Assembly (NCBI GenBank): GCA_963848545.1 | Contig: CAWKEZ010000082.1 | Coordinates: forward strand, 1 to 55,605 | DNA length: 55,605 nucleotides | Origin: an uncultured Thermoleophilia bacterium | Lineage (GTDB): Bacteria > Actinomycetota > Thermoleophilia > UBA2241 | Reading direction: 5' to 3' | Part shown: positions 4,303 to 54,949 of the stretch, piece by piece | How the letters are laid out: each line of letters begins with the position of its first letter | How positions within the stretch are numbered: the stretch's first letter is position 1 | Notes under the pieces: generated by a model | Database searches by the model: none | The model's input: only the letters and a program-made list of their open reading frames with translations | Told to the model about the DNA's origin: nothing | Translations under genes and position numbers: made by a program

Positions 4303-4310
4303 AGAGCGCC

Positions 4311-5397
4311 ATGGCAATCTCTAAAGATGACGTCCGCACGGCGTTAGGCAAGGTTTCGGGGCCCGACGGCAGGCCGCTGCCCGAAACCGGCACGCTGTCC
4401 GATATCGTCGTCACCGACGGCAAGGTGTTTTTCTCCATCACCGTCGATGCGGCCGCGGTGCCGCAGTGGGAGCCGGTCCGCGCGCGCGCCGAGCAAGCCG
4501 TGCGCGCGATTCCGGGCGTCACCTCGGCGCTGGTCGCTTTGACCGGGGAACGCGCGCCGGGGGCCGCGCGGCCACCGGCCGGCCCGCAAGCGCAAGCCGC
4601 GGCGCCGCGCCCGCAGCCTGGCGGCCGCGCGCCGCAGGCGCCAACCGGCATTCCCGGCGTCGGCGCCATCATCGCGGTCGCCTCCGGCAAGGGCGGTGTC
4701 GGCAAATCGACCACGGCGGTCAATCTCGCGCTTGGGCTGCGCGATCTTGGACTGAAAGTCGGTATCCTCGACGCGGACATCTACGGCCCATCGCTGCCTA
4801 AGCTGCTTGCGATCCGCGAGCGGCCCGAGGTCATCGGCGGCACGCGGCTCAAACCCATCGTCCGCCACGGCATGCCGGTGATGTCGATCGGTTTCCTGAT
4901 CGAGGAAGAGACGCCGATGATCTGGCGCGGCCCGATGGTGATGTCGGCGCTGACCCAGATGCTGCGCGAAGTCGAATGGGGAGCGCTCGACGTCATGGTG
5001 GTGGACATGCCGCCGGGCACCGGCGACGCGCAGCTCACCATGGCGCAGCAGGTGCCATTGAAGGGCGCCGTCATCGTTTCGACGCCGCAGGATCTGGCAC
5101 TGATCGACGCGCGGCGCGGCATCGCCATGTTCCGCCGGGTCAACGTGCCAGTGCTCGGCATCGTCGAGAACATGAGCTATTTCCTGTGCCCGCATTGCGG
5201 CGGCCGGACCGACATTTTCGGCCATGGCGGCGCGCGCGCCGAGGCCGAGCGGCTCGATGTGCCGTTCCTCGGCGAGGTGCCGCTCGACATGGAAATTCGC
5301 GAAAGATCGGATTCGGGCCAGCCGGTGGTCGCCACCCTTCCGGACGGCCCGTATGCGCAGATCTATCGCGACATTGCGGCCCGCGTGCGCGACGCCG
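4311..5397 (+). CDS. mrp: Mrp/NBP35/ApbC iron-sulfur cluster carrier ATPase; extreme C-terminus replaced at the junction
   Basis: VASGKGGVGKST P-loop, DADIYGPS, MIWRGPMV, DMPPGTGD, ENMS-CPHCG. After RDIAARVRDA the frame reads into out-of-frame dnaE. Confidence 0.88.
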
Positions 5398-5398
5398 A

Positions 5399-7693
5399 GA
5401 TATTGACCCGCTCAAGTACGATCTGCTCTTCGAGCGCTTTCTGAATCCAGGCCGCAAGAGCATGCCCGACATAGACATGGACTTCAGCGTGGCTCGCCGC
5501 GAAGAGGTCATCGACTACGTGGCGGGCAAGTACGGCCGCGACCGCGTGGCGCAGATCATCACCTTCGGTACCATGGCGGCCCGCGCCGCGGCGCGCGACG
5601 CCGCCCGCGTGATGGGCAAGCCCTACGCCGTCGGCGACAAGATCGCCAAGATGATCCCCGAGCAGGCGCCGCCGGCGACCTTCAGCCAGGCCATGCTGCC
5701 GGGCGGCGAGCTCAAACAGGCCTACGACGCCGATGAAGAGGTGAGGGAGGTCGTCGACCTGGCGACGGCGCTCGAGGGGCTCATCCGCAACGACTCCATC
5801 CATGCCGCCGCAGTGGTGATCAGCGACCAGCCGCTCACCGAGTACCTGCCGCTGCAGCAGAAGGGCGACGCCGAGCTGGTCACTCAGTTCGACATGAACG
5901 ATGTCGCCGCGCTGGGCCTGCTCAAGATGGATTTCCTCGGCCTGCGCAACCTCGACGTCATCGAGGCGGCGCTGGAGATCATCGAGGAGACGGACGGCGT
6001 GTGCATCGAGATCGACCGCTTGCCGTTGGACGACGAGAAGACCTACAAGATGCTGGCCCGCGGCGACTCCACCGGCGTCTTTCAGTTCGAGAGCGCCGGC
6101 ATGCGCGAAGCGCTGCGCGACGTCGGCCCCACGCAGTTCGAGGACCTCATCGCTATCGGCGCCCTCTACCGCCCCGGGCCGATGCAGTACATCCCCACCT
6201 ACGCCCGCAACAAGAAAGACCCGGCCTCGGTCGTCTACGACCACGAGGCCTTGCGCCCCATCCTCGAGCCCACGCACGGCGTGACCATCTACCAGGAGCA
6301 GTATATGGCCATCGCGCGGCGCGTGGGCGGCTTCTCGCCGGCCCAGGCCGACGACTTGCGCAAGGCCATCAGCAAGAAGAACCGCCAGCTCATGGCCACG
6401 CTCAAGGAGCCGCTCATGAAGGGCCTCGCGGCGAGCGGGGTGCCGCCCGCCGTGAGCCAGAAGCTGTGGGCCAACTTCGAGGCGACCGGCGATTACTCGT
6501 TCAACAAGAGCCACGCCGCCTGCTACGCCATGATCAGCTACCGTACCGCCTGGCTCAAGGCCAACTACCCGGTCGAGTACATGGCGGCGCTGGTGAGCAG
6601 CGTCATGAACACCAAAGACAAGGTGCCGTTCTACGTGAACCAGTGTCACGAGCTCGGCATCGAGGTACTGCCGCCCGACGTGAACGAGAGCGCCGTGGGC
6701 TTCACCGTGGTGGGGGGCAAGATCCGCTTTGGCCTGAACGCCGTCAAGGGCGTGGGGCGCGGCGCGATCGAAGAGATCATCGCCGCGCGCGCCGCCGTGC
6801 CGTTCACCAGCATCTACGACTTCTGCGCCCGCGTCGACGCGCAGATGGCCAACAAGCGCGTGCTCGAGGCGCTCATTCGCAGCGGCGCCTTCGACAGCAC
6901 CGGCGACCCGCGGCAGGGCATGCTCGAGGCTCTGCCGGCGGCCATGGCCGACGGCGAGCGCCGCCGGCGCGACCGCGAGCAGGGGCAGGTCGGCATGTTC
7001 GACCACCTCGACGCCGGCGACAGCGCGGGGGCGCAGGCGCCGCAGGTGCCGCAGCGGGAGTTCGACCAAGCGACCCGCCTGAAGGGCGAGAAGGAGGCGC
7101 TGGGCCTCTACGTGTCGGCGCACCCACTGCAGGGCCTGCGCGAACAGTTGCGCGACGAGATCGAGGTGCCCGTGAGTCAGCTCGACGACTCCGGCGACGG
7201 CGCCGTGCTGTGGACCGGAGGCATCGTCGCCAACGCGCAGAAGAAGGTGAGCAAGAACGGCGGTGTATGGCTGGCCTTCCGTCTCGAAGATGTAGACGGC
7301 GGCGTGGAGGGCCGCGCCTGGCCGGCGACCTACGAGCAGTACAAGGATCTGCTGCACGAAGACGCCATCATCAAGGTGAAGGGGCGCGTGGAACGCAAGA
7401 GCGAGGGCGAGACGACCCTTATCGCCATCGAGGTGCAGCCGTTCAGCGGCGTGAGCGAGTATCGCCCGCTCACGGTGACGATCGACGCCCGCCGCGTGCG
7501 ACCCAGCGTGCTCGACGACCTCAAACGCATCTTCGCCGACTTCCCCGGGCAGGTACCCGTGGTGCTGCACATGGTGCGCGATGAGCAGCGCGCCCGGCTG
7601 CGGGTGGGCGACGGCTTGCGGGTGGCGCCGGTGGCCGGCCTGTATGCCGAGCTCAAGGCATTGCTGGGCGAGAGCTGCATCGGGGTCAGTTAA
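5399..7693 (+). CDS. dnaE: DNA polymerase III alpha subunit, N-terminally truncated (PHP domain absent)
   Basis: DIDPLKYDLLFERFLNPGRKSMPDIDMDF, HAAAVVI, GLLKMDFLGLRNL, GVFQFES, FNKSHA and a C-terminal OB fold. Starts abruptly mid-protein. Confidence 0.93.
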   Translation, partial: DIDPLKYDLLFERFLNPGRKSMPDIDMDFSVARREEVIDYVAGKYGRDRVAQIITFGTMAARAAARDAARVMGKPYAVGDKIAKMIPEQAPPATFSQAMLPGGELKQAYDADEEVREVVDLATALEGLIRNDSIHAAAVVISDQPLTEYLPLQQKGDAELVTQFDMNDVAALGLLKMDFLGLRNLDVIEAALEIIEETDGVCIEIDRLPLDDEKTYKMLARGDSTGVFQFESAGMREALRDVGPTQFEDLIAIGALYRPGPMQYIPTYARNKKDPASVVYDHEALRPILEPTHGVTIYQEQYMAIARRVGGFSPAQADDLRKAISKKNRQLMATLKEPLMKGLAASGVPPAVSQKLWANFEATGDYSFNKSHAACYAMISYRTAWLKANYPVEYMAALVSSVMNTKDKVPFYVNQCHELGIEVLPPDVNESAVGFTVVGGKIRFGLNAVKGVGRGAIEEIIAARAAVPFTSIYDFCARVDAQMANKRVLEALIRSGAFDSTGDPRQGMLEALPAAMADGERRRRDREQGQVGMFDHLDAGDSAGAQAPQVPQREFDQATRLKGEKEALGLYVSAHPLQGLREQLRDEIEVPVSQLDDSGDGAVLWTGGIVANAQKKVSKNGGVWLAFRLEDVDGGVEGRAWPATYEQYKDLLHEDAIIKVKGRVERKSEGETTLIAIEVQPFSGVSEYRPLTVTIDARRVRPSVLDDLKRIFADFPGQVPVVLHMVRDEQRARLRVGDGLRVAPVAGLYAELKALLGESCIGVS

Positions 7694-7732
7694 GGCCGGG
7701 CGGATGAGCGCAGACAGGGGCGCGAGACAGGA

Positions 7733-8931
7733 ATGATCCCCGAAGGCATGCACGACGTGCTCCCTCCCGAGGCGCGCGAGCTGCGCGCCATCGTGACGGC
7801 GCTGTGCGGCCGTTTCGAGGCCTACGGCTACGGCGAGGTGAGCACGCCCTGGCTGGAGTTCGCCGAGACGCTCGAGATCGCCGGCGACGACACCCTCGAG
7901 GCCGGCTACCGGCTGCACGATCAGCAGGGTCATGAGCTCATGCTGCGCACCGACATGACGGTGCCCGTGGCGCGCCTCGCCGCGTCGCACTACCGCGACG
8001 CGCCCCTGCCGCTGCGCTTCTTCTATGTAGCGCCTTCCATACGGCCGTGGGCGCCGCAGCGCAGCCAAGACGGTGAATTCGTGCAGGCCGGTGCCGAGCT
8101 TCTGGGTCTGCATTCGGCGGCCGCCGACGCGGAGTGCGTGACACTGCTGTGCGACTGCCTCTCATCGCTGGGCGTGCGCGACTACCGCGTGGCGCTGGGC
8201 ACGGTCGATTTCTACACGGCGCTGGTCGATGCCCTTGGTCTGGCCGCCGTAGATCGCGAGAAGTTCCTGGAGGCGCTCTCGGATCGCGACTACCCGCTGC
8301 TGGAGAGCATCGCCGGCAAGGCCGAGGCAGACGGTGCCGCCCTCGACGCCCTGTGGTGTACGCTCGAGTTGAGCGGCACGCGCGACAGCCTGTCACAGGC
8401 GCGCAAGCTCGCCCGCAGCCCCGCCATGGAGGCCGCCATTGAGCATCTCGTCACCGTGCGCGATCTAGTGGAGGTGGCGGGCTTCGACGACGCCGTCACC
8501 TTTGATTTCGGCCTGTTCCAAGACCTCACGTACTACCGGGGCGTCATCTTCGAGGCCTACGCCCCGGGGGTGGGGCTGCCCATCGCCTCGGGCGGGCGCT
8601 ACGACGGTCTCTGGCGCGCTTCGACTGGGACGTGCCCAGCGTGGGCTTCGCCATCGCCCTGGATCGGCTGCAGGAGGCTCTCGAGGAGGTCGGGACGGCG
8701 CTGGCTCCGGCTCCGGCTCTCCTGGCCTACGTCGGCGGCGTCGCAGACCCGTCGCGGGCGGCCGAGCTGCGCCGCGCGGGCCGGGCGGTGGTGGCCCTGC
8801 CCGAGGGCACGCCCTGGGCCCTGCGTCCGCTGCTGCGTCGTGACGGCGGTGCCTTCCGCCTGGAGCTGGCCGACGGCACCGTGGTGACCGGGGGCTGGCG
8901 CGACGTGCTGCGCGCGCTGGGACGTGCGTGA
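7733..8931 (+). CDS. hisZ: ATP phosphoribosyltransferase regulatory subunit (one indel near 8610)
   Basis: IPEGMHD, LRTDMTVPVAR, EFVQAGAELLG, YYRGVIFEAY, SGGRYD, then PSVGFAIALDRL in the next frame. First gene of the his cluster. Confidence 0.88.
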
Positions 8932-9548
8932 AGATCGGCATCGCCTGCGATGAAGGGCGGGCAGCGGCCGAGGTAATCGACCTCCTGGCGGCGGCAGGAC
9001 TGCCCGCCGCGCCGCTGCGCGGCGTGGCTTCTCCGGCGCTGGTGACGGCCGCCGAAACTACCTGGCTGCTGGCCGGCGCCGCCGACGTGCTGGCCGGCTG
9101 CAGCCATGGCGGGCTGGACGCCGCCGTGGCCGGCAAAGGGGTACTGCTCGAGCTCGAGCCGGGGGTGTCTGAAGTGCTCGACCTCGGGGTCTGCGCGGAT
9201 GCCCTCGTCTACGCGACGCCGAACGCGTACCCGCCGGCCACCGGCCGCGCGCGGCCGCGCGTCGCTACCCCCTACCCTCGGGTGACACAGAGGTACTTCG
9301 CCGCCGCGGGGCGTCAGGTTGAGGCGTTACCGTTCGCCGCCGCCGCCCTGGCGCCGGCCTTGGGGCTGGCCGAGGGTGTAGTGGATCTGCGCACGCGCCT
9401 GGCCGTGTCAGGTGTGGCCCTGAACGAGCGCGAGCAGGTCGCCCTCAGCAGCGCCCGTCTGGTCGTGGGCCGTGCGGCGCGCACGTTGCGCGCTCGAGAT
9501 ATCGCCGAGCTGATCGCCCGCCTGCGGGCACTGCTGGAGGGAGCATGA
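8928..9548 (+). CDS. hisG: Short-form ATP phosphoribosyltransferase homologue with degenerate active-site motifs
   Basis: Lies between hisZ and hisD with GTGA/ATGA overlaps. Retains GLDAAVAGKGVLLE, VLDLG, RVATPYP, LAPALGLAEGVVD and SSARLVV, but lacks GSVE and the [ST]GxT loop. Confidence 0.75.
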   Translation: MKIGIACDEGRAAAEVIDLLAAAGLPAAPLRGVASPALVTAAETTWLLAGAADVLAGCSHGGLDAAVAGKGVLLELEPGVSEVLDLGVCADALVYATPNAYPPATGRARPRVATPYPRVTQRYFAAAGRQVEALPFAAAALAPALGLAEGVVDLRTRLAVSGVALNEREQVALSSARLVVGRAARTLRARDIAELIARLRALLEGA

Positions 9549-10879
9549 GGCGGCTGGATTGGTCTGACGACGTTGCCGTGACCGTGGCGGCGCTGCGTGG
9601 CTTTGCGCCACCGCCCGCCGGGGTGCGGGCCGCCGTCACCGCGATCATGGACGACGTGCGGGCGCGCGGCGACGATGCCGTGCGCGAGCACACGCAGCGC
9701 CTGGACGTCGTGGGGCTGCCGCCAGACTATGCGGTCCCGGTGCCGCAGATGCGCAAGCGGCTCGACGCGCTGGACCCCGCGTTGCGCGCGGCCCTGGAGC
9801 TGGCCGCCGCCAACGTGCGCGCCTATCACGAACGCGAGGCTCCTCATGCCTGGCGCGAGACATTTCCGCAAGGCCAGATGGTAGGCCAGGAGGTGATCCC
9901 GCTGGCCGTTGCCGGCCTCTACGTACCGGGAGGGCTCGCCAACTATCCGTCCTCGGTGCTCATGACGGCCATCCCGGCCCTGGTGGCCGGGGTCGGGCGC
10001 ATCATGGTGTGCTCGCCGCCGCGCCGCTGGAAACGCACGGCCTCCGAGGGTCAGGAGGCCGCGAGCCAGGCCGGCGAGCCCATGGCGAACGCGGCGCGCC
10101 CACCCATTGCCGTCGCGCACGGCGTGGCGGCCGCGTGCGCGCTGCTCGGCCTCAGCGATCTATACCCCATCGGTGGGGCCCAGGCTGTGGCCGCCATGGC
10201 CTTCGGTACGGCCACGGTCCCGCGCTGTGACGTGATCGTGGGTCCCGGCAACGCCTACGTTACCGAGGCCAAACGGCAGGTGATTGGTGAGGTGGGCATC
10301 GACGCGCTGGCGGGCCCCAGCGAGGTGCTCATCATGGCCGACGAGGGCGGCAACCCCGCCTGGCTGGCGGCCGATCTGCTTGCTCAAGCAGAGCACGGCG
10401 CCGGCGCCATGGCCTGCCTGGCCGACATCGGCGGCGCTCTGGCGGCACCAGTTGCGGCCGCGCTGACCGAGCTCGCCACCGAGCTCGGCGTTACGACGGA
10501 CAACGTGGCCATCGTGAGGTGTCCTGGCCGCGCCGCCGCCGTGGAGCTGTGTAACGCCTTCGGCCCGGAGCACCTCGAGATTCACGTCGCCGACCCGGGC
10601 GCACTGGTGCACCTCATCCGCAACGCCGGCGCCATCTTCGTGGGCCCGTACGCAGCCACCGCCTTCGCCGACTACGCGGCCGGCAGCAACCACGTGCTGC
10701 CCACCGGCGGCTCGGCCCGCTTCGCCCAGGGCCTGAGCGTGGCCGATTTCCAAAAGAGGGTAGCTGTGGTAGAACTCGACCGCGCCGCCGCCGCCGCCCT
10801 GGCTCCCCACGTGGCGGCCATCGCCGGCGACGAAGGGCTGCGCGCCCACGCGCGCTCCGCCTCCCTGCGCGCCGAATGA
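9545..10879 (+). CDS. hisD: Histidinol dehydrogenase
   Basis: GLYVPGG, GGAQAVAAMAFG, VGPGNAYV, AGPSE, DLLAQAEH, PEHLE, GSNHVLPTGG, EGLRAHA. Confidence 0.93.
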   Translation: MRRLDWSDDVAVTVAALRGFAPPPAGVRAAVTAIMDDVRARGDDAVREHTQRLDVVGLPPDYAVPVPQMRKRLDALDPALRAALELAAANVRAYHEREAPHAWRETFPQGQMVGQEVIPLAVAGLYVPGGLANYPSSVLMTAIPALVAGVGRIMVCSPPRRWKRTASEGQEAASQAGEPMANAARPPIAVAHGVAAACALLGLSDLYPIGGAQAVAAMAFGTATVPRCDVIVGPGNAYVTEAKRQVIGEVGIDALAGPSEVLIMADEGGNPAWLAADLLAQAEHGAGAMACLADIGGALAAPVAAALTELATELGVTTDNVAIVRCPGRAAAVELCNAFGPEHLEIHVADPGALVHLIRNAGAIFVGPYAATAFADYAAGSNHVLPTGGSARFAQGLSVADFQKRVAVVELDRAAAAALAPHVAAIAGDEGLRAHARSASLRAE

Positions 10880-10889
10880 GGAGTCCAGT

Positions 10890-11480
10890 ATGAGTACGCG
10901 CCGCGCCGAGGTGCACCGCAGCACCAGCGAGACCGATATCACCCTGTCGCTGGCGCTCGACGGTACGGGCACGGCCGAGGTGAGCACGGGTATCGGGTTC
11001 TTCGATCACATGCTCACCTTGTTTGCCCACCACGGCGGCTTCGACCTGCGCCTGCAGGCCAGCGGAGACCTGAACGTTGACGGTCACCATACCGTGGAGG
11101 ACGTCGGCCTGGCCTTGGGCGAGGCTCTCAAGGAGGCGCTCGGCGACAAGCGCGGCATTCGGCGCTACGGCGCGTTTCTGCTGCCCATGGACGAGGCGCT
11201 TGCCATGGTGGCGCTCGACCTCTCCGGGAGACCGTATTTCGTCCACGACCTGCGGCTCGCGGGGGTGCGCATCGGCGAGTTCGAGGGCAACCTGGCGGCT
11301 CATTTCCTGCACTCGCTGAGTACGGCCGCGGGAATGACGCTGCACGTACGTTTGCTGGCTGGCAGCGACGCGCACCACATCGTCGAGGCGGTCTTCAAGG
11401 GCGTCGCGCGAGCACTCTCCCAGGCCTGCGAGCGGCACGGGCGCGACGATCATGTGCCATCGACGAAGGGCGTCCTCTGA
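10890..11480 (+). CDS. hisB: Imidazoleglycerol-phosphate dehydratase
   Basis: RSTSETDI, TGIGFFDHML, DGHHTVED, LPMDEA, HHIVEAVFK, PSTKGVL. Confidence 0.95.
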   Translation: MSTRRAEVHRSTSETDITLSLALDGTGTAEVSTGIGFFDHMLTLFAHHGGFDLRLQASGDLNVDGHHTVEDVGLALGEALKEALGDKRGIRRYGAFLLPMDEALAMVALDLSGRPYFVHDLRLAGVRIGEFEGNLAAHFLHSLSTAAGMTLHVRLLAGSDAHHIVEAVFKGVARALSQACERHGRDDHVPSTKGVL

Positions 11481-12133
11481 AGGCCACGCCGTCTGCTGCC
11501 CAGCCGCGCATCGCCGTGGTCGACTACGGCATGGGCAACCTGGCGAGCGTGCTCAAAGCGCTCGAACGCAGCGGCGCAGAGGTGCGCGTCACGCAGAGTC
11601 CGTCGGCGGTGCGCGCTGCCGCCGCGGTGGTGCTGCCCGGGGTGGGAGCCTTTCGTGACGCGACGACGCGACTGGCGACCAGCGGCTTGGGAGCCGCCGT
11701 ACTCGAGCGCATCGCCGCCGGCGTGCCGTTTCTGGGCGTGTGCCTGGGCCTGCAGCTCCTCTTCGAGCGCAGCCGCGAGGGCGGCGACTGGCCTGGTCTG
11801 GGCGTGTTCGGCGGCGTCGTAGACAGGCTGCAGACGCCGCTCAAGGTGCCCCACATCGGCTGGAACACCCTCGACTGGGAGCCGGCCGGGGATGGCATGG
11901 CGAGGGGGCTGCCGGTGCCGGCTGCCGTCTACTTCGTACACTCGTTTGCCGCCGTCCCGGCCGACGCCGCGGTGGTCGCCGCCACCACCGACTACGGCGG
12001 TCGTGTCGTGGCCGCCGTCGCGCGGGATAATGTGTGGGCGGTACAATTTCACCCCGAGAAGAGCTCCCGCGTGGGCCTGCAGCTTCTGGCCAACTTCGTG
12101 GGACGAGTGAAGCAGGAGGCGCGCCAGCCATGA
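11477..12133 (+). CDS. hisH: IGP synthase glutamine amidotransferase subunit (start uncertain: CTG 11477 or GTG 11516)
   Basis: RIAVVDYGMGNL, LPGVGAF, LGVCLGLQ, VPHIGWN, YFVHS, QFHPEKS. Confidence 0.92.
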   Translation: MKATPSAAQPRIAVVDYGMGNLASVLKALERSGAEVRVTQSPSAVRAAAAVVLPGVGAFRDATTRLATSGLGAAVLERIAAGVPFLGVCLGLQLLFERSREGGDWPGLGVFGGVVDRLQTPLKVPHIGWNTLDWEPAGDGMARGLPVPAAVYFVHSFAAVPADAAVVAATTDYGGRVVAAVARDNVWAVQFHPEKSSRVGLQLLANFVGRVKQEARQP

Positions 12134-12855
12134 TCGTCTTTCCGGCCATAGATATTCAGGGCGGCAAGGCGGTGCGCCTGCGACGCGGCGACTTTCACGA
12201 CGTCACCGTGTTCAGTGACGATCCCGTGGAGCTCGCCCGCCAGTGGCGGGCCGAGGGGGCGGAAGCACTCCACGTCGTCGACCTCGACGCGGCCCGTACC
12301 GGCGAGCTCGTCAACTTCGGGATCGTCGAGGCGATCGTGAAGACAATCGACATCCCAGTGCAGTACGGCGGCGGCATCCGCAGCGCCAAGAGCCTGGCAC
12401 TGGTGGCCGGCATCGGCGTGCACTGGGTAGTGATGGGCACCGCGGCGGTCACGGCTCTCGATCTGCTCGACGACGCCGTGAACTGGCTGGAGGAGCGGCT
12501 CGTGGTGGGGCTCGACTGCACTGACGGAATGGTCGCCACGCATGGCTGGCAAGAACGCTCGCAGATGACTGCCATTCACTTCAGCAAGGTGTTGGCCGAG
12601 CACGGTGTGAGGCGCGTCGTGTACACCGATACGTCGCGTGACGGCATGCTCGGCGGACCCAACCTCATCGGGCTTCGCGACCTGGCCGAGGTGACACCGC
12701 TCGAGATCATCCTCTCCGGCGGCGTCGCTCTGCTCGACGACCTGCGCCGCGTGAAGAAGCTCAATGCCCCTAACGTGGTGGGTGTCATCGTCGGACGCGC
12801 ACTCTACGAGAAGGCGTTCACGCTGCCCGACGCGCAGATGGTCTTCGCCGGCTGA
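12130..12855 (+). CDS. hisA: ProFAR isomerase
   Basis: [45 protein letters not shown] overlap with hisH. Confidence 0.93.
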
Positions 12856-12884: not shown

Positions 12885-13691
12885 ATGCACATGAAGCGCA
12901 TCATCCCGTGCCTCGACGTGCGCGACGGGCGGGTGGTCAAGGGTATCAACTTCGTCGGCTTGCGCGACGCCGGGGACCCCGTGGAGCTCGCGGCGCGCTA
13001 CGACGCCGAGGGCGCCGACGAGCTCGTCTTCCTCGACATCACCGCCTCGCACGAACGGCGCGAGATCATCGCCGACCTGGCGGCACGCTGTGCCGAGCAG
13101 GTGTTCATCCCGTTCACCATAGGCGGGGGTCTGGCCAGTGAGGACGATGTGCGCATGATCCTCGCCGCCTGCGCCGACAAGGTGACCATGAACACGGCCG
13201 CGGTGGAGGACCCAGACCTGGTGCGTCGCTGCGCCGAGCACTTCGGGGCACAGTGCATCGTCGTGGCCATCGACGCCAAGCAGGTGGCCGGCAGCGGGGA
13301 AGACGGCCGGCTGGCGCGCTGGGAGGCGTTCGTGCACGGCGGGCGCACGGCCACTGGCATCGATGCCGAGGAGTGGGCCGTGCGCGCCGCGCAGCTCGGT
13401 GCCGGCGAGTTCATGCTCACCAGCATGGATCGCGACGGCACGCTGGAGGGCTACAACCTCGCGCTCACGCGCACCATCGCGCGAGCCGTAGACGTGCCCG
13501 GGATCGCCTCCGGCGGAGTGGGCACGCTCGAGCACCTCGCGGAGGGGCTCACCGAGGGCGAGGCCGACGCGGTGCTGGCGGCCAGCATCTTCCACTTCGG
13601 CACCTACTCGATCGCCGAGACCAAGGCATACCTGGCGGCGCGCGGCATCCCGGTACGGCAGGCTCCAGGACCAACCGTCGGCGGGCTGTGA
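12885..13691 (+). CDS. hisF: IGP synthase cyclase subunit
   Basis: [50 protein letters not shown]. Confidence 0.95.
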
Positions 13692-22290: not shown

Positions 22291-25072
<2,782 letters not shown>

Positions 25073-43849: not shown

Positions 43850-43876
43850 GATCGGCGGCTTTCAGCCGCCGATCTT
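43850..43876 (+). terminator. Hairpin after hpf, possible terminator
   Basis: GATCGGCGGCT-TTC-AGCCGCCGATC perfect 11-bp stem with only a short T tail. Confidence 0.5.
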
Positions 43877-43953
43877 CGAGATGCACGCAGTGCCCGACTG
43901 TGTGCGAGAATACGTACCGAGGCCAAGTTACGCGACCCGGGAGAATTCCGTCT

Positions 43954-46632
43954 GTGATCAAGATCGTCGACAAGCTGCTGCACGCCGGTGAGGGTCGTCG
44001 CCTCAAAGCCCTCGAGGAACAAACCGCCAGGGCCTGCATCCGGCTGGAGGCCGGCGTTGTCGGCCTCACGGACGAGGAGCTGCGGGCCAAGACAGACGAG
44101 TTCCGTCAGCGCTACCAGAACGGTGAGCTTCTCGACGACTTGCTCTACGAAGCCTTCGCGGTCGTTCGCGAAGCGGGCAAGCGGGCCTTGAATATGCGGC
44201 CCTTTGACGTGCAGGTGCTGGGCGGCATCGTCCTTCACGAGGGCGACATCGCCGAGATGAAGACCGGCGAGGGCAAGACCCTCGTCGCCACCATGCCTAT
44301 GTACCTCAACGCCCTGTCCGGCAACGGCACTCACCTGGTCACCGTCAACGATTATCTGGCCAAGCGCGACGCCGAATGGATGGGCCAGGTCTACCGCTTC
44401 CTCGGTCTCCAGGTCGGTGTCATCCAGGCCAACATGACGCCCGAGGAGCGGCGCGCCCAGTACAACGCCGACGTGACCTACGGCACCAACTCCGAGTTCG
44501 GCTTCGACTACCTGCGTGACAACATGACGATGCGCCGCGAGCACATGGTGCAGCGCGGCCATCACTACTGCATCGTCGACGAAGTCGACTCCATCCTCAT
44601 CGACGAGGCGCGCACGCCGTTGATCATCAGCGGCGCCCCCGAGACGGCCGCCGACACGTATCGACAGTTCGCCCGGGTAGTGCCGCGTCTGCACGCCGCC
44701 GAAGACTACGAGGTAGACGAGAAGCAGCGCACGGTGGCGGTCACCAAGAGTGGTGTGGCCAAGGTGGAGCGCGCCCTCGACATCGACAACCTCTACAAGG
44801 ACTCAAACGGAGGCCTCGTCAATCACCTCATCCAGGCGTTGCGCGCCGAGTCGCTCTACCACAAAGACGTCGAGTACGTGGTGCAGAACGGCGAAGTGCT
44901 GATCGTCGACGAGTTCACGGGCCGCATCCTCGACGGACGGCGCTACTCCGAGGGTCTGCACCAGGCCATCGAGGCCAAGGAGAGGGTGCCCATCCGCGAA
45001 GAGAACCAGACGCTCGCGACCATCACCTTGCAGAACTACTTTCGCATGTACGAGGTGCTGGCCGGCATGACCGGTACCGCCAAGACCGAGGAAGACGAGT
45101 TCCGTCGGATCTACGGCCTCGAGGTGGTGCAGATCCCCGCCAATGCACCGATGGTGCGCAAAGACGAGAACGACTTCATCTTCACTACCGCCAAGGAGAA
45201 GTTCGCGGCTGTGGTCGACGATATCGTGGGCCGCTACGAGAAGGGCCAGCCGGTGCTCGTAGGCACGGTCTCGGTGGAGGTCAGCGAAATGCTCTCGCGT
45301 CTGCTCGAACGTCACGGCGTGCCGCATAGCGTGCTGAACGCCAAGCAGCACGAGCGCGAGGGCGAGATCTCAAGACCGCGGGCCAGAAGGGCGTGGTGAC
45401 GATCGCCACCAACATGGCCGGCCGCGGTGTCGACATCAAGCTGGGCGAGGGGGTCGTCGCGGCCGGCGGTCTCTACGTGCTGGGCACGGAGCGCCACGAG
45501 AGCCGGCGCATCGACAACCAGCTCCGCGGCCGTTCCGGCCGCCAGGGCGACCCGGGTGAGAGCCGCTTCTATCTCTCGGCCGAAGACGAGCTCATCCGCC
45601 TGTTCGCCGGCGATCGCATGTACCGTATCCTCAGCAGGCTGGGCCCGCAGGAGGGCCAGCCGCTCGAGGCGAGGATGCTCAGCAACGTGGTCGAGAAAGC
45701 GCAAGTGAAGGTCGAAGAGCTCAACTTCATGCGACGCAAGAACGTGCTCAAATACGACGAGGTCATGAACGAGCAGCGGCGCGTGATCTACGACCAGCGC
45801 AACCGCATCCTGATGGGCGAAGACTTCGGCGGCCAGGTGCGAGAGATGATCCGCGAGCTGGTCGAGGGTACCGTGGGGGGCGCGCTGGGAGGCGTGCAGT
45901 TCTCCGAAGACTGGGACATGGACGGTCTCTTCATCGGGCTCGCGCAGATCTACGATCCCAAGGTCAAGAAGAACGATATCGACATCGCGTCAGCGACCGA
46001 AGACGACATGGTCGACCTCTTCGCAGACGACGCGCTCGACCAATACGACGAGCGCGAACGCATCATCGGCGTCGAGCAGATGCGCACCGTGGAGCGGGCC
46101 GTGATGCTGCAGGTCATCGACGCGCGCTGGAAAGACCATCTCCTCGACATGGACTACTTGCAGGAGGGCATCCACCTGCGCGCCCTCGGGCAGCGCGACC
46201 CCCTGGTGGAGTACAAGAACGAGGGGTTCGAGCTGTTCCAAGACATGTCCGAGGGCATCAAGCTCAGCACCGTCACCACGCTCATGAAGAACAGCCCTGA
46301 AGACCTCGCCGTGTTCACCGCGGTGATTCTTCGAGGAGCCGCTCGTGCAGCTCAACTACACGAGCGGCGACGACCTCATCACGCAGACCTCGTTCCACGG
46401 CGCCGCTCAGGCCGCCGGCGAGTATGCCACCCCAGACGGAGACGGCTTCGCCGACGAGCCTCCACCGAACCTGGCCGCCGGCGGCGGCCGGCGCGGCGGC
46501 GCCAGCACCACGACGAGCACCGGCGGCGCCAAGGTGCAAGTGCAACAGAGGGTGGTCTACGAGAAGGTCGGGCGCAACGACCCGTGCCCGTGCGGCAGCG
46601 GGAAGAAGTACAAGAGGTGTCACGGGGCCTAG
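43954..46632 (+). CDS. secA: Preprotein translocase ATPase SecA (indels near 45372 and 46331)
   Basis: [81 protein letters not shown]. Confidence 0.97.
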
Positions 46633-49047: not shown

Positions 49048-49572
49048 ATGAGCAGCAGACCTCCCACCTTGCGCGGTCGTCAGGTGACGCTGCGTCCTCT
49101 CGAGCCCGACGATGCGCCCCTCCTGATTGCCATCCTGGCGCAGCCAGAAGTGGCCGCCTGGTGGCGGCGCGACGAGTGGGAGCGCTTGGACGAGGACGAC
49201 GCCGTCACGTTGGCGATCGCCCGCGAAGGCGCGGTGGTCGGCTGCATCCAGTTCAATGAGGAGACGGACCCCGACTACCGGTCGGCCGCCATCGATATCT
49301 TCGTGGCGGCGTCGGCCCACGGCCGCGGGATCGGCTCCGACGCCCTGCGCACACTGATCGGCTGGCTCATCGCGGCGCGCGGGCATCACCGCTTCACCGT
49401 TGACCCGGCCGTGGCCAACGGGCATGCCATTCACGTCTACGAGAAGCTAGGCTTTCGCCCCGTGGGCGTCTTGCGTCGCTACGAGCGCGTGGCCGACGGC
49501 ACGTGGCGCGATGCCCTGCTCATGGAACTGCTCGCCGAGGAGCTCGTCGGTGAGGAGGCCGGGCGGCGATGA
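49048..49572 (+). CDS. GNAT acetyltransferase (RimJ/AAC(6')-like)
   Basis: VTLRPL, PEVAAWW, IDIFV...HGRGIG, DPAVAN..AIHVYEKLGF. Preceded by TGgTACCCT 6 nt before the ATG. Confidence 0.85.
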   Translation: MSSRPPTLRGRQVTLRPLEPDDAPLLIAILAQPEVAAWWRRDEWERLDEDDAVTLAIAREGAVVGCIQFNEETDPDYRSAAIDIFVAASAHGRGIGSDALRTLIGWLIAARGHHRFTVDPAVANGHAIHVYEKLGFRPVGVLRRYERVADGTWRDALLMELLAEELVGEEAGRR

Positions 49573-50572
49573 CCGCGGCCGTCATGTACCCCAAGATGGA
49601 GCTCCACGTTCACCTGGAGGCGACGGTGCACCCGGAGCGCCTCCTCGAGATGGCACGGCGCAACGACGTGCGGCTGCCGGCCAGGGACGTGGCGGGGCTC
49701 AGGCGATTCTGCCGGTTCACGGATTTCGACCATTTCATCCGCGTCTGGATCAGGACCACCCGGGCACTGTGCCATGAACGCGACTTCCGCCAGGTCGTGG
49801 TCGACTACGCCGCCGACCTGGCGGCACAGGGCTGCGTGTACGCCGAGGCGCTGTTCTCGCCTTCAGAGCCGGTCGCGCGCCGTGGCACGCCGTGGCAGGA
49901 GATCTTCGAGGGCTATTGCAGTGGTGCCCAGGAGGCCCGGGAGACGCACGGCGTGGAGATCAGATTCACGCCCGACATCACGCGCGACTTCCCCGTGGAG
50001 ATCGCCGACCAGGTGGTGAGCTGGGCCGTGCGCTACCGCGCACGCGGGATCGTGGGTATCAGCCTCGGCGGCAGCGAAGCCAGGTTTCCGCCGGAGCTCT
50101 TCGAGAGGCCCTTCGCCGCGGCGCGCGCGGGAGGTCTCAAGGCCGCGCCCCACGCCGGCGAGATCGCCGGGCCGGCCTCGGTACGCGGCGCCCTGAACGT
50201 GCTGCACGCGGATCGCCTGCGGCACGGCGTGCGCGCCGCGGAGGATCCCGGGCTCTCGCCGAGCTGGCCGCGCGTGGTATCGTCTGCGACGTGACGCCCA
50301 CCAGCAACGTGCTCACCGGAGCTGTGCCCTCGCTGGCGCGGCACCCGCTGCCGCGCCTGCTCGCGGCCGGCGTGCGCTGCTCCATCTCGTCGGACGATCC
50401 CGTGCTCATGAACACCCACCTCAGCCGTGAGTGCACCCTCGCCACCGGTCTCGGGCATGCGCCCCGGAACATGTTCGCCCACGCTCTCGCCGGAGCCTTC
50501 TGCGACGACGGTCTCAAGGCGAGATTGCACGCCGTCGGGGAGGCGTTCGACTGGGGCAAGGCTGGGGCATAG
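49569..50572 (+). CDS. add: Adenosine/adenine deaminase family protein (indel near 50255)
   Basis: PKMELHVHLE, PHAGE, RLRHG, PTSN, SSDDP. Confidence 0.88.
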
Positions 50573-53246: not shown

Positions 53247-54949
53247 GTGAATCCAGTAAGTGACCCCACCATGGAGAAGAGCGCCCAACCCCAGGGCGAA
53301 GGCGTCTCGCAGCGCCGTCGCCGGCGCGGTGGCCGCGGCCGCGGTCGCGGCGCCGGCGCCGCGACAGGCGCGAGCGCGGCAAGCGGCGTGGCGGGCGCCA
53401 CCGTGAACGCCCAGGGCGCTGCCCCTGCCCGGCCGCAAGCCTCTGACGGTCCCCAGACCGAGCAGCGCACAGACGTGCAGTCTGAGCGCCAGCCTCGGCA
53501 GGGCCAGCATGAGCGCCACGGCCGCCTGGGCGGCGGGTCTGGTCGCGACCACTCCGCTCGCGACCGGGCCCGGGGTCCGCGCCGCGAGCGCGACGATCGC
53601 CGCGGCCCCGGCGTGGATGAGAGCTACCACGAGCGCACTCACGCCGAGCGACCCGCCGGCCCCACGCCGGAGGTCGACCTGCCGCTGTTCGCCGCGCTTG
53701 GCCTGAGCGGCGACCTTCTGGCCGGCGTCGCGGCCATGGGGTACAAGACGCCCACTCCCATCCAGGAGCAAGCCATCCCCCGCGTCCTTGCCGGACGCGA
53801 CGTGGTGGGCTGTGCGCAGACCGGTACCGGCAAGACGGCCGCCTTCGTTCTGCCCATAGTGCAACGCATGAGCAGGCCCGACCGTCGCCGACGGTCGCAC
53901 CGCCCACCCGTCTGCCCTGGTGGTTACGCCCACCCGCGAGCTTTGCGGCCAGATCGAGGAGGTAGGCGAGACCCTCAGCACCTACACCCGTCGCACCGTG
54001 GTGGCCGTGTTCGGTGGGGTGCCATACGACCCCCAGGCGAGGAAGGTGCGCAAGGGCGTCGACCTGCTGGTGGCCACTCCGGGCCGGCTGCTCGACATGC
54101 TGCGGCAGGGCGACATCCTGCTCGACAAGGTCAGCACGCTCGTCCTGGACGAGGCCGACCGCATGCTCGACATGGGCTTCTGGCCAGACGTGAAACGCAT
54201 CATCAACGCCATCCCGTCGAAGCGTCAGAACCTGTTCTTCAGCGCCACCATGAGCAAGCAGGTGCTGAGCATCATCGAGGATACGCTGCACCAGCCGGTG
54301 TTTCATCGAGCTGGGGGGCAGCGCCACGCCAGTGGAGAGCGTGGAGCAGAAGGTGCTGCCGGTCAACCATGACCAGAAGGTCGACCTGCTGGTGGAGTAT
54401 TTCCGCCACCACGACCCCGAGCGCACCCTGGTGTTCACCCGCACGCGACGCCGCGCCGAACGCCTGGCGCGCACCCTCAACAAGGCCGGGATCACCTGTG
54501 AGGCGATCCACGGCGACCGTTCACAGGGCCAGCGCCAACAGGCGCTCGACGGCTTCAAGAAGGGCAAGATCGCCGTGCTGGTGGCCACCGACGTGGTGGC
54601 CCGCGGCATCGACGTAGACGACATTACGCACGTGATCAACTTCGACATCCCCACGAACCCGGAAGATTACGTGCACCGCATCGGGCGCACCGCCAGGGCG
54701 GGCGCCAGCGGCATCGCCGTGAGCCTGCTCACGGGGGAGGACGTGCACGAGCTCAAGGCCATCAAGCGTCTCATCGGCGCCACCCTCGAGCGCCACGACC
54801 TGCCCGAGTTCGACTACGACAAGCGCGCCATCCCGGAGTCACACCAGGTGCAGGCACGTCCAGGCAAGCTGGTGTGGAACGGCGGCGCCCGGCGCTCTGC
54901 CTCTCGAGGCATCAGGCCGCGCGTGCCGCGCCGCAGCGCGGCGCGCTAG
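53247..54949 (+). CDS. DEAD-box RNA helicase with long Arg/Gly-rich N-terminal extension (about 2 indels; start GTG 53247 or ATG 53271)
   Basis: Q motif [60 protein letters not shown]. Confidence 0.93.

Follow-up and report, generated by a model that had tools for sequence, protein, structure and literature searches.

Why would an otherwise ordinary histidine operon carry, in the place of its first catalytic gene, a protein that seems to have lost the residues needed for catalysis? The question is raised by contig CAWKEZ010000082.1 of an uncultured Thermoleophilia bacterium (Actinomycetota; UBA2241; assembly GCA_963848545.1), all 55,605 nucleotides of which make up the window analyzed here. 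At positions 8928 to 9548, between hisZ and hisD, the window encodes a 206-amino-acid protein, here called HisG', that is related to HisGS, the short form of ATP phosphoribosyltransferase (ATP-PRT). A first-pass annotation made from the DNA sequence had described it as a pseudo-enzyme and suggested that it could be a structural or regulatory partner for HisZ and for a catalytic HisG encoded elsewhere. The analysis presented here leads to a similar view: HisG' is probably a conserved pseudo-enzyme partner of HisZ, with a role other than ATP-PRT catalysis.

HisG' is still recognizable as a member of the HisG family. It matches Pfam PF01634 with 70.6 bits against a cut-off of 25.5, residues 51 to 200 aligning with positions 2 to 157 of the 158-position profile, and falls just below the cut-off of the corresponding NCBIfam equivalog, TIGR00070 (75.3 versus 75.75 bits). 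An AlphaFold model based on 54 sequences has a predicted local distance difference test score (pLDDT) of 94.7 and a predicted template-modelling score of 0.89. When this model was searched with Foldseek, the best matches were the HisGS structures of Psychrobacter arcticus, Acinetobacter baumannii, and Lactococcus lactis (template-modelling score, TM, 0.80 to 0.84), and the two-domain HisG fold is present in it (E 1e-17 and TM 0.81 to 0.84 with 6fca, 6fu7, and 5m8h).

The loss of the active site becomes apparent when residues are mapped through HMMER alignments to 2vd2, 5m8h, and 7z6r, with the numbering of P. arcticus HisGS. In the passages of PMC9734150 that treat these residues, R32, R56, K57, and C115 are conserved catalytic or leaving-group residues, D179 is also named, and E163 bonds the 3'-OH of phosphoribosyl pyrophosphate (PRPP); R73 is an ATP γ-phosphate contact in the corresponding part of PMC10795190. 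Among 12 positions aligned to the P. arcticus protein, HisG' keeps R32, D176, and T180, and the other nine are changed: R56 to P, K57 to A, R73 to G, C115 to D, K137 (the K of ATKY) to P, E163 to A, D179 to R, G181 to R, and T183 to A. Where canonical short HisGs read (S/P)KGR, ATKYP, GS(V/I/M)ELAP, and (I)VD(I/V)VxTGxTL, the window reads DEGR, ATPYP, AAAALAP, and VVDLRTRLAV, while VLDLG, LAPALGLA, and SSARL, which belong to the scaffold, are retained. The PRPP-binding signature, which we take to be E...G-x-[SAG]-x2-[IV]-x-D-[LIV]-x2-[ST]-G-x-T-[LM] in PROSITE, is not matched by the window's A-A-L-A-P-A-L-G-L-A-E-G-V-V-D-L-R-T-R-L-A-V. The residue-level alignments therefore bear out the motif readings of the first-pass annotation (EGR, ATPYP, AAAA, and DLRTRLAV, with VLDLG and SSARL kept), as well as its remark that the loop is not recovered in the remaining frames, which contain stops and no such motifs between 9315 and 9430. 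Its statement that no indel was evident holds for the reading frame, which is intact, but overlooked a one-residue deletion that precedes AAALAP relative to canonical HisG.

The same loss is seen throughout the clade to which HisG' belongs. Across 48 aligned clade members, none of the 12 mapped positions has its canonical residue in the majority; the sole survivor is D176, as E or D, and R32, kept in the window, is P, A, or G in most members. No conserved alternative residues have taken the place of the lost ones, and the mapped positions have a mean entropy of 1.89 versus 1.50 for the rest of the protein. Judged from sequence and from the predicted structure, the fold of HisG' is kept and its chemistry is gone.

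As the metagenome-assembled genome (MAG) from which the window derives is only 54% complete, in 112 contigs, and the window contains broken genes (hisZ, dnaE, atpD, secA, and a DEAD helicase), it could be argued that errors of assembly or sequencing produced the unusual motifs. We regard the probability of this as negligible, and the orthologues refute it: the same residue states recur in 20 of 20 independent genomes of the window's genus and in 38 metagenome proteins, and neither alternative frame restores a motif. In each of the 20 fetched genus loci, an intact open reading frame (ORF) of 202 to 218 amino acids with the same degenerate features lies between hisZ and hisD or hisB. The 38 proteins were found in a search of 5.8 billion proteins, are 50 to 75% identical to HisG', and share the loss of KGR, AT[PR]YP, AAALAP with the one-residue deletion, and DL-R-S-R; the same search returned four canonical proteins at 32 to 38% identity. 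Close orthologues with GSVE and STGxT intact, which the first-pass annotation had regarded as speaking against a pseudo-enzyme, were not found.

A profile search of 1.84 billion representatives gave 45 proteins at E ≤ 1e-30. Both motifs are missing in all of the top 12 (at least 188 bits), and visual inspection of the alignment assigns about 23 of the best 150 to the dead type and the remainder to the canonical one. Among 27 related loci in a species-genome collection, 25 belong to Thermoleophilia, Actinomycetes, or Actinomycetota MAGs, and the HisG' frame remains open in genera between which the protein differs by up to 60 to 70%. Outside the clade, one representative (P0118), which keeps PKG, GSLE, and the R/K region and has its D-x-x-x-TGxT loop replaced by DIPNWYVG, may be a separate case of partial HisG degeneration. 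Several others (P0067, P0080, P0098, P0099, and more) are about 540 amino acids long, have their C-terminal 200 residues occupied by a canonical HisG domain, and may be HisZ-HisG fusions.

Whether such a protein is still maintained can be assessed from codon substitution. The ratio dN/dS (omega) was estimated by maximum likelihood under GY+F3X4 from genus codon sets of 21 hisG', 19 hisZ N-terminal, and 15 hisD rows, with loci carrying a frameshifted hisZ or hisD excluded. Omega was 0.131 for hisG', 0.048 and 0.117 for the N- and C-terminal parts of hisZ, and 0.075 for hisD; at 0.035 (21 genes), a separately encoded long hisG, described below, is about four times more tightly constrained than hisG'. 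In the 25 closest pairs, NG86 omega was 0.20 to 0.78 for hisG', 0.06 to 0.30 for the hisZ N-terminal part, and 0.18 to 0.23 for hisD. Neutrality of the genus hisG' is rejected by about 600 log-likelihood (lnL) units (best null -9523 versus -8909, kappa scanned from 1 to 3). In a sister genus, omega was 0.065 for hisZ, 0.133 for hisG' (10 of 11 rows; L060 is missing, with no tblastn HisG match), and 0.074 for hisD, and omega = 1 is rejected with 2ΔlnL of 1346, 536, and 1330, respectively. The window's genus gives the same values. The dN/dS near 1 by which the first-pass annotation would have recognized ordinary decay is thus not what is found, and hisG' is clearly constrained at the protein level, though relaxed two- to fourfold. 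The combination of residue loss, purifying selection, and long-term retention makes HisG' a pseudo-enzyme, and the kept fold, the unreplaced active-site loss, and the omega of 0.131 support the reading first given to it.

A more pessimistic view of the same relaxation would be that HisG' is a functionless relic in slow decay, its frame preserved by coupling to hisD or by too little time since another enzyme took over. The higher omega of hisG' (0.131 versus 0.048 to 0.075 for its neighbors), the long branches in its tree, a guanine-plus-cytosine (GC) content above that of the surrounding locus, the greater variability of the former active-site positions, and the fact that the gene can be deleted without pathway loss would all fit. 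We nevertheless consider it unlikely. An omega of 0.13 reflects constraint at the amino acid level, with omega = 1 rejected in both genera, the predicted fold has a pLDDT of 94.7, and the frame has stayed open across the divergent genera mentioned above. In addition, hisG' is intact in four genomes in which the downstream hisD is deleted or broken (G013, G015, G054, and G058); coupling to hisD is therefore not the reason for its retention.

If HisG' is not a catalyst, the first step of histidine synthesis has to be looked for elsewhere in the genome. Pfam HisG searches of the genus returned a weak match of 34 to 83 bits, which is the operon gene, and a strong match of 141 to 154 bits in frames of about 290 amino acids or more. 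The strong match is a long-form HisG of about 289 amino acids whose gene lies apart from the his operon and whose motifs read LPKGSL, SWGATE, and VEVTETGSSL. Of the genus's 53 other genomes, the long form occurs in 44 and the operon form in 47; 38 carry both. Genomes from other families of the class (n = 16) have no match of the weak type; 15 have one strong match and one has two. Median pairwise identity over 10 genomes is 85% for long HisG, 68% for HisZ, and 53% for HisG'. The GC content of the long-form gene is only 2 to 4 points below that of its flanks, which is not taken as a sign of horizontal transfer. The suggestion of a catalytic HisG encoded elsewhere is consequently upheld for these 44 relatives by a canonical long form, but not for the window's own MAG, in which none was found.

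The relation of both HisG forms to the pathway was analyzed in the family, which is the sole family of its order and comprises 89 genomes, the window's included. All were scored for hisI (PF01502), imidazoleglycerol-phosphate dehydratase (IGPD; PF00475), and HisZ (TIGR00443), with hisI and IGPD as pathway markers and hisE left out. Forty genomes are at least 90% complete, with contamination of up to 8%; a stricter class holds 32. In the set of 40, long HisG and hisI are both present in 28 genomes and both absent from 11, one has hisI without long HisG, and none has long HisG without hisI. From these counts it follows that the long form tracks the pathway.

The hisZ-hisG' pair does not. HisZ and the operon HisG are still present in 10 of the 11 pathway-less genomes, nine of these HisGs being of the dead type and one canonical-looking up to a run of N. 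The pathway-less genomes are scattered over at least five positions in the HisZ tree, and the pathway was thus lost at least five times. Four sister-genus genomes (100, 96, 95, and 92% complete) are without long HisG, HisI, IGPD, and HisA/F, and HisZ is found in all 12 genomes of that genus, in which the locus order is dnaE-hisZ-hisG'-hisD-phzF-rpiB. The reverse situation also occurs. A 98%-complete, two-contig genome encodes the whole pathway together with the long form, yet is without hisZ and has only an 89-amino-acid C-terminal remnant of hisG' (dnaE, 63-bp gap, remnant, hisD), and in a 97%-complete genome of another genus dnaE is followed by a 172-bp gap and hisD. Histidine synthesis can thus do without the pair, and hisZ and hisG' are lost together. 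One further genome without hisZ, hisG', and IGPD (G010) was excluded as a clean case, since its operon is possibly unassembled.

These distributions bear on the possibility that HisZ and HisG' do no more than assist in regulating the long-form HisG or the his operon, for example, in a histidine-dependent heteromer with long-form HisG. Such a role would accord with the co-occurrence of both forms in 38 of 53 genomes, with the position of the pair at the head of the operon, and with the known part of HisZ in mediating histidine inhibition, as set out in sections of PMC10795190. It appears quite unlikely, however, as the pair persists at an unchanged omega in a genus without long HisG, HisI, IGPD, and HisA/F, and also in at least four separate pathway-less lineages within the window's genus. 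Furthermore, the long form, at about 289 amino acids, has a regulatory C-terminal domain of its own, and R56, which a HisG subunit lends to the active site of its dimer partner, is lost in HisG'. Because the pair survives loss of the pathway, its role is probably not the regulation of histidine synthesis alone.

It could also be supposed that HisG' retains ATP-PRT activity through a rebuilt, non-canonical active site, perhaps only in association with HisZ. HisZ can rescue active-site HisGS mutants that are severely impaired, according to the relevant part of PMC9734150; selection maintains hisD in the sister genus, where this is the only HisG; and D176 (as E/D) and S/T at T180 are fairly common in the clade. 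Set against this are the joint loss of the PRPP loop, E163, R56/K57, R73, and K137, with unconserved replacements, and the dependence of pathway presence on the long form (28, 0, 1, and 11 genomes for both, long HisG only, hisI only, and neither). Genomes with HisG' as their only HisG are also without HisI, HisA/F, and IGPD, so that any phosphoribosyl-ATP made would have no onward route. We therefore consider retained activity very unlikely.

Several observations concern the remains of the pathway in these genomes. The sister-genus loci (L059 to L067, L086, and L087) keep hisD beside hisZ-hisG' at the omega of 0.074 given above, in genomes without hisB, hisH, hisA, hisF, and hisI, and three members keep a divergent IGPD (136 to 141 bits); histidinol salvage is one possibility for HisD in this setting. 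A compact hisI-long hisG-hisB cluster of about 2 kb, apart from the operon, is present in four genomes (G019 C206, G063 C362, G080 C5, and G050 C13), one of which is the only member of the pathway-less sister genus with long HisG and hisI. In G054, G055, G058, and G015 (L079 to L081 and L023), the his operon is decayed: hisA is kept, and hisD, hisB, hisH, and hisF are lost or are remnants. HisA has a dual, PriA-type role in tryptophan synthesis in Actinomycetota, and this fits its retention. A clear HisE (PRA-PH, PF01503) was not found in six high-quality genomes of the window's genus: PF01503 finds nothing in G007 and gives weak matches inside an ORF of 385 to 421 amino acids in the other five (G002, G061, G069, G072, and G023). 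The second pathway step may be performed there by a non-canonical pyrophosphohydrolase, perhaps a MazG-like enzyme.

The partner with which HisG' is retained is an ordinary HisZ, scoring 260 to 318 bits against TIGR00443 in the family. A model of the HisZ of the closest intact relative has a pLDDT of 85.4 and as its best match 3OD1, the HisZ of Bacillus halodurans. Of 40 related loci with both genes, 26 have hisZ and hisG' overlapping by 4 nucleotides at the stop and start codons. When HisZ and HisG' of the closest intact relative were modelled together, the complex scored 0.66, compared with 0.43 for the best of three controls, and passed a mark for which the pass rate is 116 of 157 among solved complexes and 2 of 215 among mismatched pairs; the runs agree in at least 91% of contacts, and the pLDDT of the partners is at least 87. 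The overlap, the joint deletion, and a complex model that surpasses its controls lend support to the idea that HisG' is a partner for HisZ.

The origin of the pair can be approached from phylogeny. In trees built on subsets of sequences, the family's operon HisGs all fall into a single clade (support 100/99), at whose base lies a near-canonical member (GPVEAAP, DLVRSGETL) and whose terminal branches are long (0.2 to 1.7). The long forms of the family group, on short branches, with those of another family of the class. The single clade with its near-canonical base and the order dnaE-hisZ-hisG-hisD conserved across the family show that an ancestral HisGS degenerated in place.

From these sequence comparisons it is likely that HisG' is the in-place descendant of an ancestral HisGS and has lost PRPP and ATP binding along with catalysis. 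The ATP-PRT step in the family would be carried out by the separate, self-regulated long-form HisG, and HisG' would no longer be needed for histidine synthesis. Even so, it is maintained together with HisZ, as seen from coupled translation, purifying selection, loss of the two genes only jointly, and retention through repeated losses of the pathway. By analogy with the HisZ4:HisGS4 octamer, and in line with the complex model, HisG' would most likely be a non-catalytic structural partner in a HisZ-HisG' hetero-oligomer. HisZ would bind a ligand, probably histidine, and the complex would sense or regulate a target outside ATP-PRT catalysis. A plausible, if tentative, extension is that two pseudo-enzymes, a dead aminoacyl-tRNA synthetase paralogue and a dead phosphoribosyltransferase, form a stand-alone small-molecule sensor or regulator outside histidine biosynthesis, probably for histidine, that is kept in auxotrophs.

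A number of points weigh against a conserved, non-catalytic partnership with HisZ. The long form was not found in the window's own MAG, which at 54% completeness is uninformative in this respect. A 92%-complete genome (G092) has hisI and IGPD and no detected long form, and four less complete genomes of the genus (80 to 86%) show the same pattern. The pathway-less keepers of hisZ-hisG' are MAGs, and four of the losses inside the genus are recent and may have left little time for decay. With an omega 2 to 4 times that of its neighbors, hisG' is under relaxed constraint. As to the predicted complex, its passing score may reflect likeness to solved HisZ-HisGS complexes rather than binding, and one control scored 0.43. 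Predicted interface residues are only slightly, and not significantly, more conserved than others, random sets being as low in 2659 of 20000 draws for HisG' and 1340 of 20000 for HisZ. The presumed loss of catalysis itself is drawn from sequence and genome distribution.

The features of the locus are collected in Table 1. The 206-amino-acid ORF and its ATGA coupling to hisD are as the first-pass annotation gave them. The GTGA coupling to hisZ is also present, but only with a downstream hisZ frame, as hisZ is frameshifted in the window by a 1-nucleotide deletion near 8611 to 8613, where the window reads GGRYDGLWRAS and relatives read GGRYDGLLARFDWD. The second frame matches the HisZ C terminus of relatives, and hisZ is a single frame in 17 of 20 genus loci.

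Table 1. Features of the his locus in the window, with positions, strand, and the basis of each assignment
Feature	Position	Strand	Basis
dnaE, C-terminal ~760 aa, directly upstream of hisZ	4802..7693	+	Pfam DNA_pol3_alpha, finger, HHH_6
hisZ, HisRS-like regulatory subunit	7733..8931	+	two frames (7733-~8612, ~8613-8931); PF13393 243 bits and TIGR00443 260.8 bits, first frame
hisG', degenerate short-form HisG, 206 aa	8928..9548	+	start GTG 8928, stop TGA 9546-9548; PF01634 70.6 bits, TIGR00070 75.3
GTGA stop/start overlap, hisZ/hisG'	8928..8931	+	direct sequence reading
ATGA stop/start overlap, hisG'/hisD	9545..9548	+	direct sequence reading
hisD, histidinol dehydrogenase	9545..10879	+	PF00815 425.5 bits, TIGR00069 419.5 bits
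hisB, imidazoleglycerol-phosphate dehydratase	10890..11480	+	PF00475 213 bits
hisH, glutamine amidotransferase	11516..12133	+	PF00117 78 bits; position inside his operon
hisA/priA-type isomerase	12130..12855	+	PF00977 228.5 bits; ATG 12130 inferred from relatives, listed ORF from 12034
hisF	12885..13691	+	PF00977 265.7 bits

Upstream, the end of dnaE lies about 40 bp 5' of hisZ (7694 to 7732), an adjacency that is family-wide and persists even where hisZ-hisG' is deleted: by Pfam match, dnaE lies 5' of hisZ in L059 and L061, and it precedes a hisZ-less his operon in L088 and L089. Downstream of hisF follow a Sua5/YrdC-like ORF and rpiB. No promoter-like or terminator-like site was found in the window between 7400 and 11000, and for 7733 to 9548 a look for sequencing runs gave no RNA data and only four DNA runs with small shares. 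Housekeeping genes of the window are broken at 4305 to 7693, 23885 to 24628, 43852 to 45396, 49554 to 50291, 53872 to 54949, and about 8612. The dnaE gene is without its N-terminal part and overlaps a Mrp/ParA-like frame, atpD consists of its C-terminal part only, secA and an adenosine deaminase gene are truncated, and the DEAD-box helicase is in two frames. These breaks look like indel noise of the assembly rather than genome decay.

The assignment of HisG' as non-catalytic has practical consequences. At least five sources name proteins of this clade ATP phosphoribosyltransferase, and as a result, metabolic reconstructions would wrongly score the first step of histidine synthesis as present, apparent histidine auxotrophs included, in a lineage that is widespread in soil, peat, and freshwater. 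The family also offers a natural series at one orthologous locus, from near-canonical HisGS through intermediates to fully degenerate forms, after takeover by the long form. As HisZ-HisGS is a model of allosteric activation, a conserved version in which both subunits are inactive would point to a function of the assembly beyond catalysis. A literature search found no publication linking HisG with the term pseudoenzyme; in the portion of PMC10795190 that uses it, "catalytically inactive" refers to HisZ.

Compared with known systems, the closest likeness is to the HisGS-HisZ enzymes of P. arcticus (5M8H/6FU2), A. baumannii (8OY0), L. lactis (1Z7M), and Thermotoga maritima (1USY). HisG' shares with them its fold (TM 0.80 to 0.84), its length class, the order of hisZ before hisG, and translational coupling; an interface between HisZ and HisG' is only predicted. 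It differs in having lost PRPP- and ATP-binding and leaving-group residues (R56, K57, R73, C115, K137, E163, G181, and T183), and the HisZ-HisG' pair differs in coexisting with a long-form HisG, in being dispensable for the pathway, and in being retained without it. With the long-form enzymes of Mycobacterium tuberculosis (1NH7), Campylobacter jejuni (4YB7), and Methanothermobacter thermautotrophicus (2VD3), HisG' has homologous catalytic domains, but it is without the C-terminal regulatory domain and the active site, and the long form of its relatives is at a separate locus. Two active ATP-PRT isozymes are reported in Geobacter sulfurreducens. A HisZ with an anticodon domain is described for Geobacteraceae in part of PMC2923632. 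In the scheme outlined in portions of PMC8305728, organisms need either hisGL or hisGS together with hisZ, and those with hisGL are assumed to be without hisZ; this Thermoleophilia family, in contrast, has hisGL, hisZ, and a dead hisGS together. A precedent comes from HisZ itself, in which, as passages of PMC10795190 describe, an enzyme fold has been retained for a regulatory subunit without catalytic activity. In the pair considered here, the HisG' subunit would be non-catalytic as well, and the complex, unlike HisZ-HisGS, would hold no active site.

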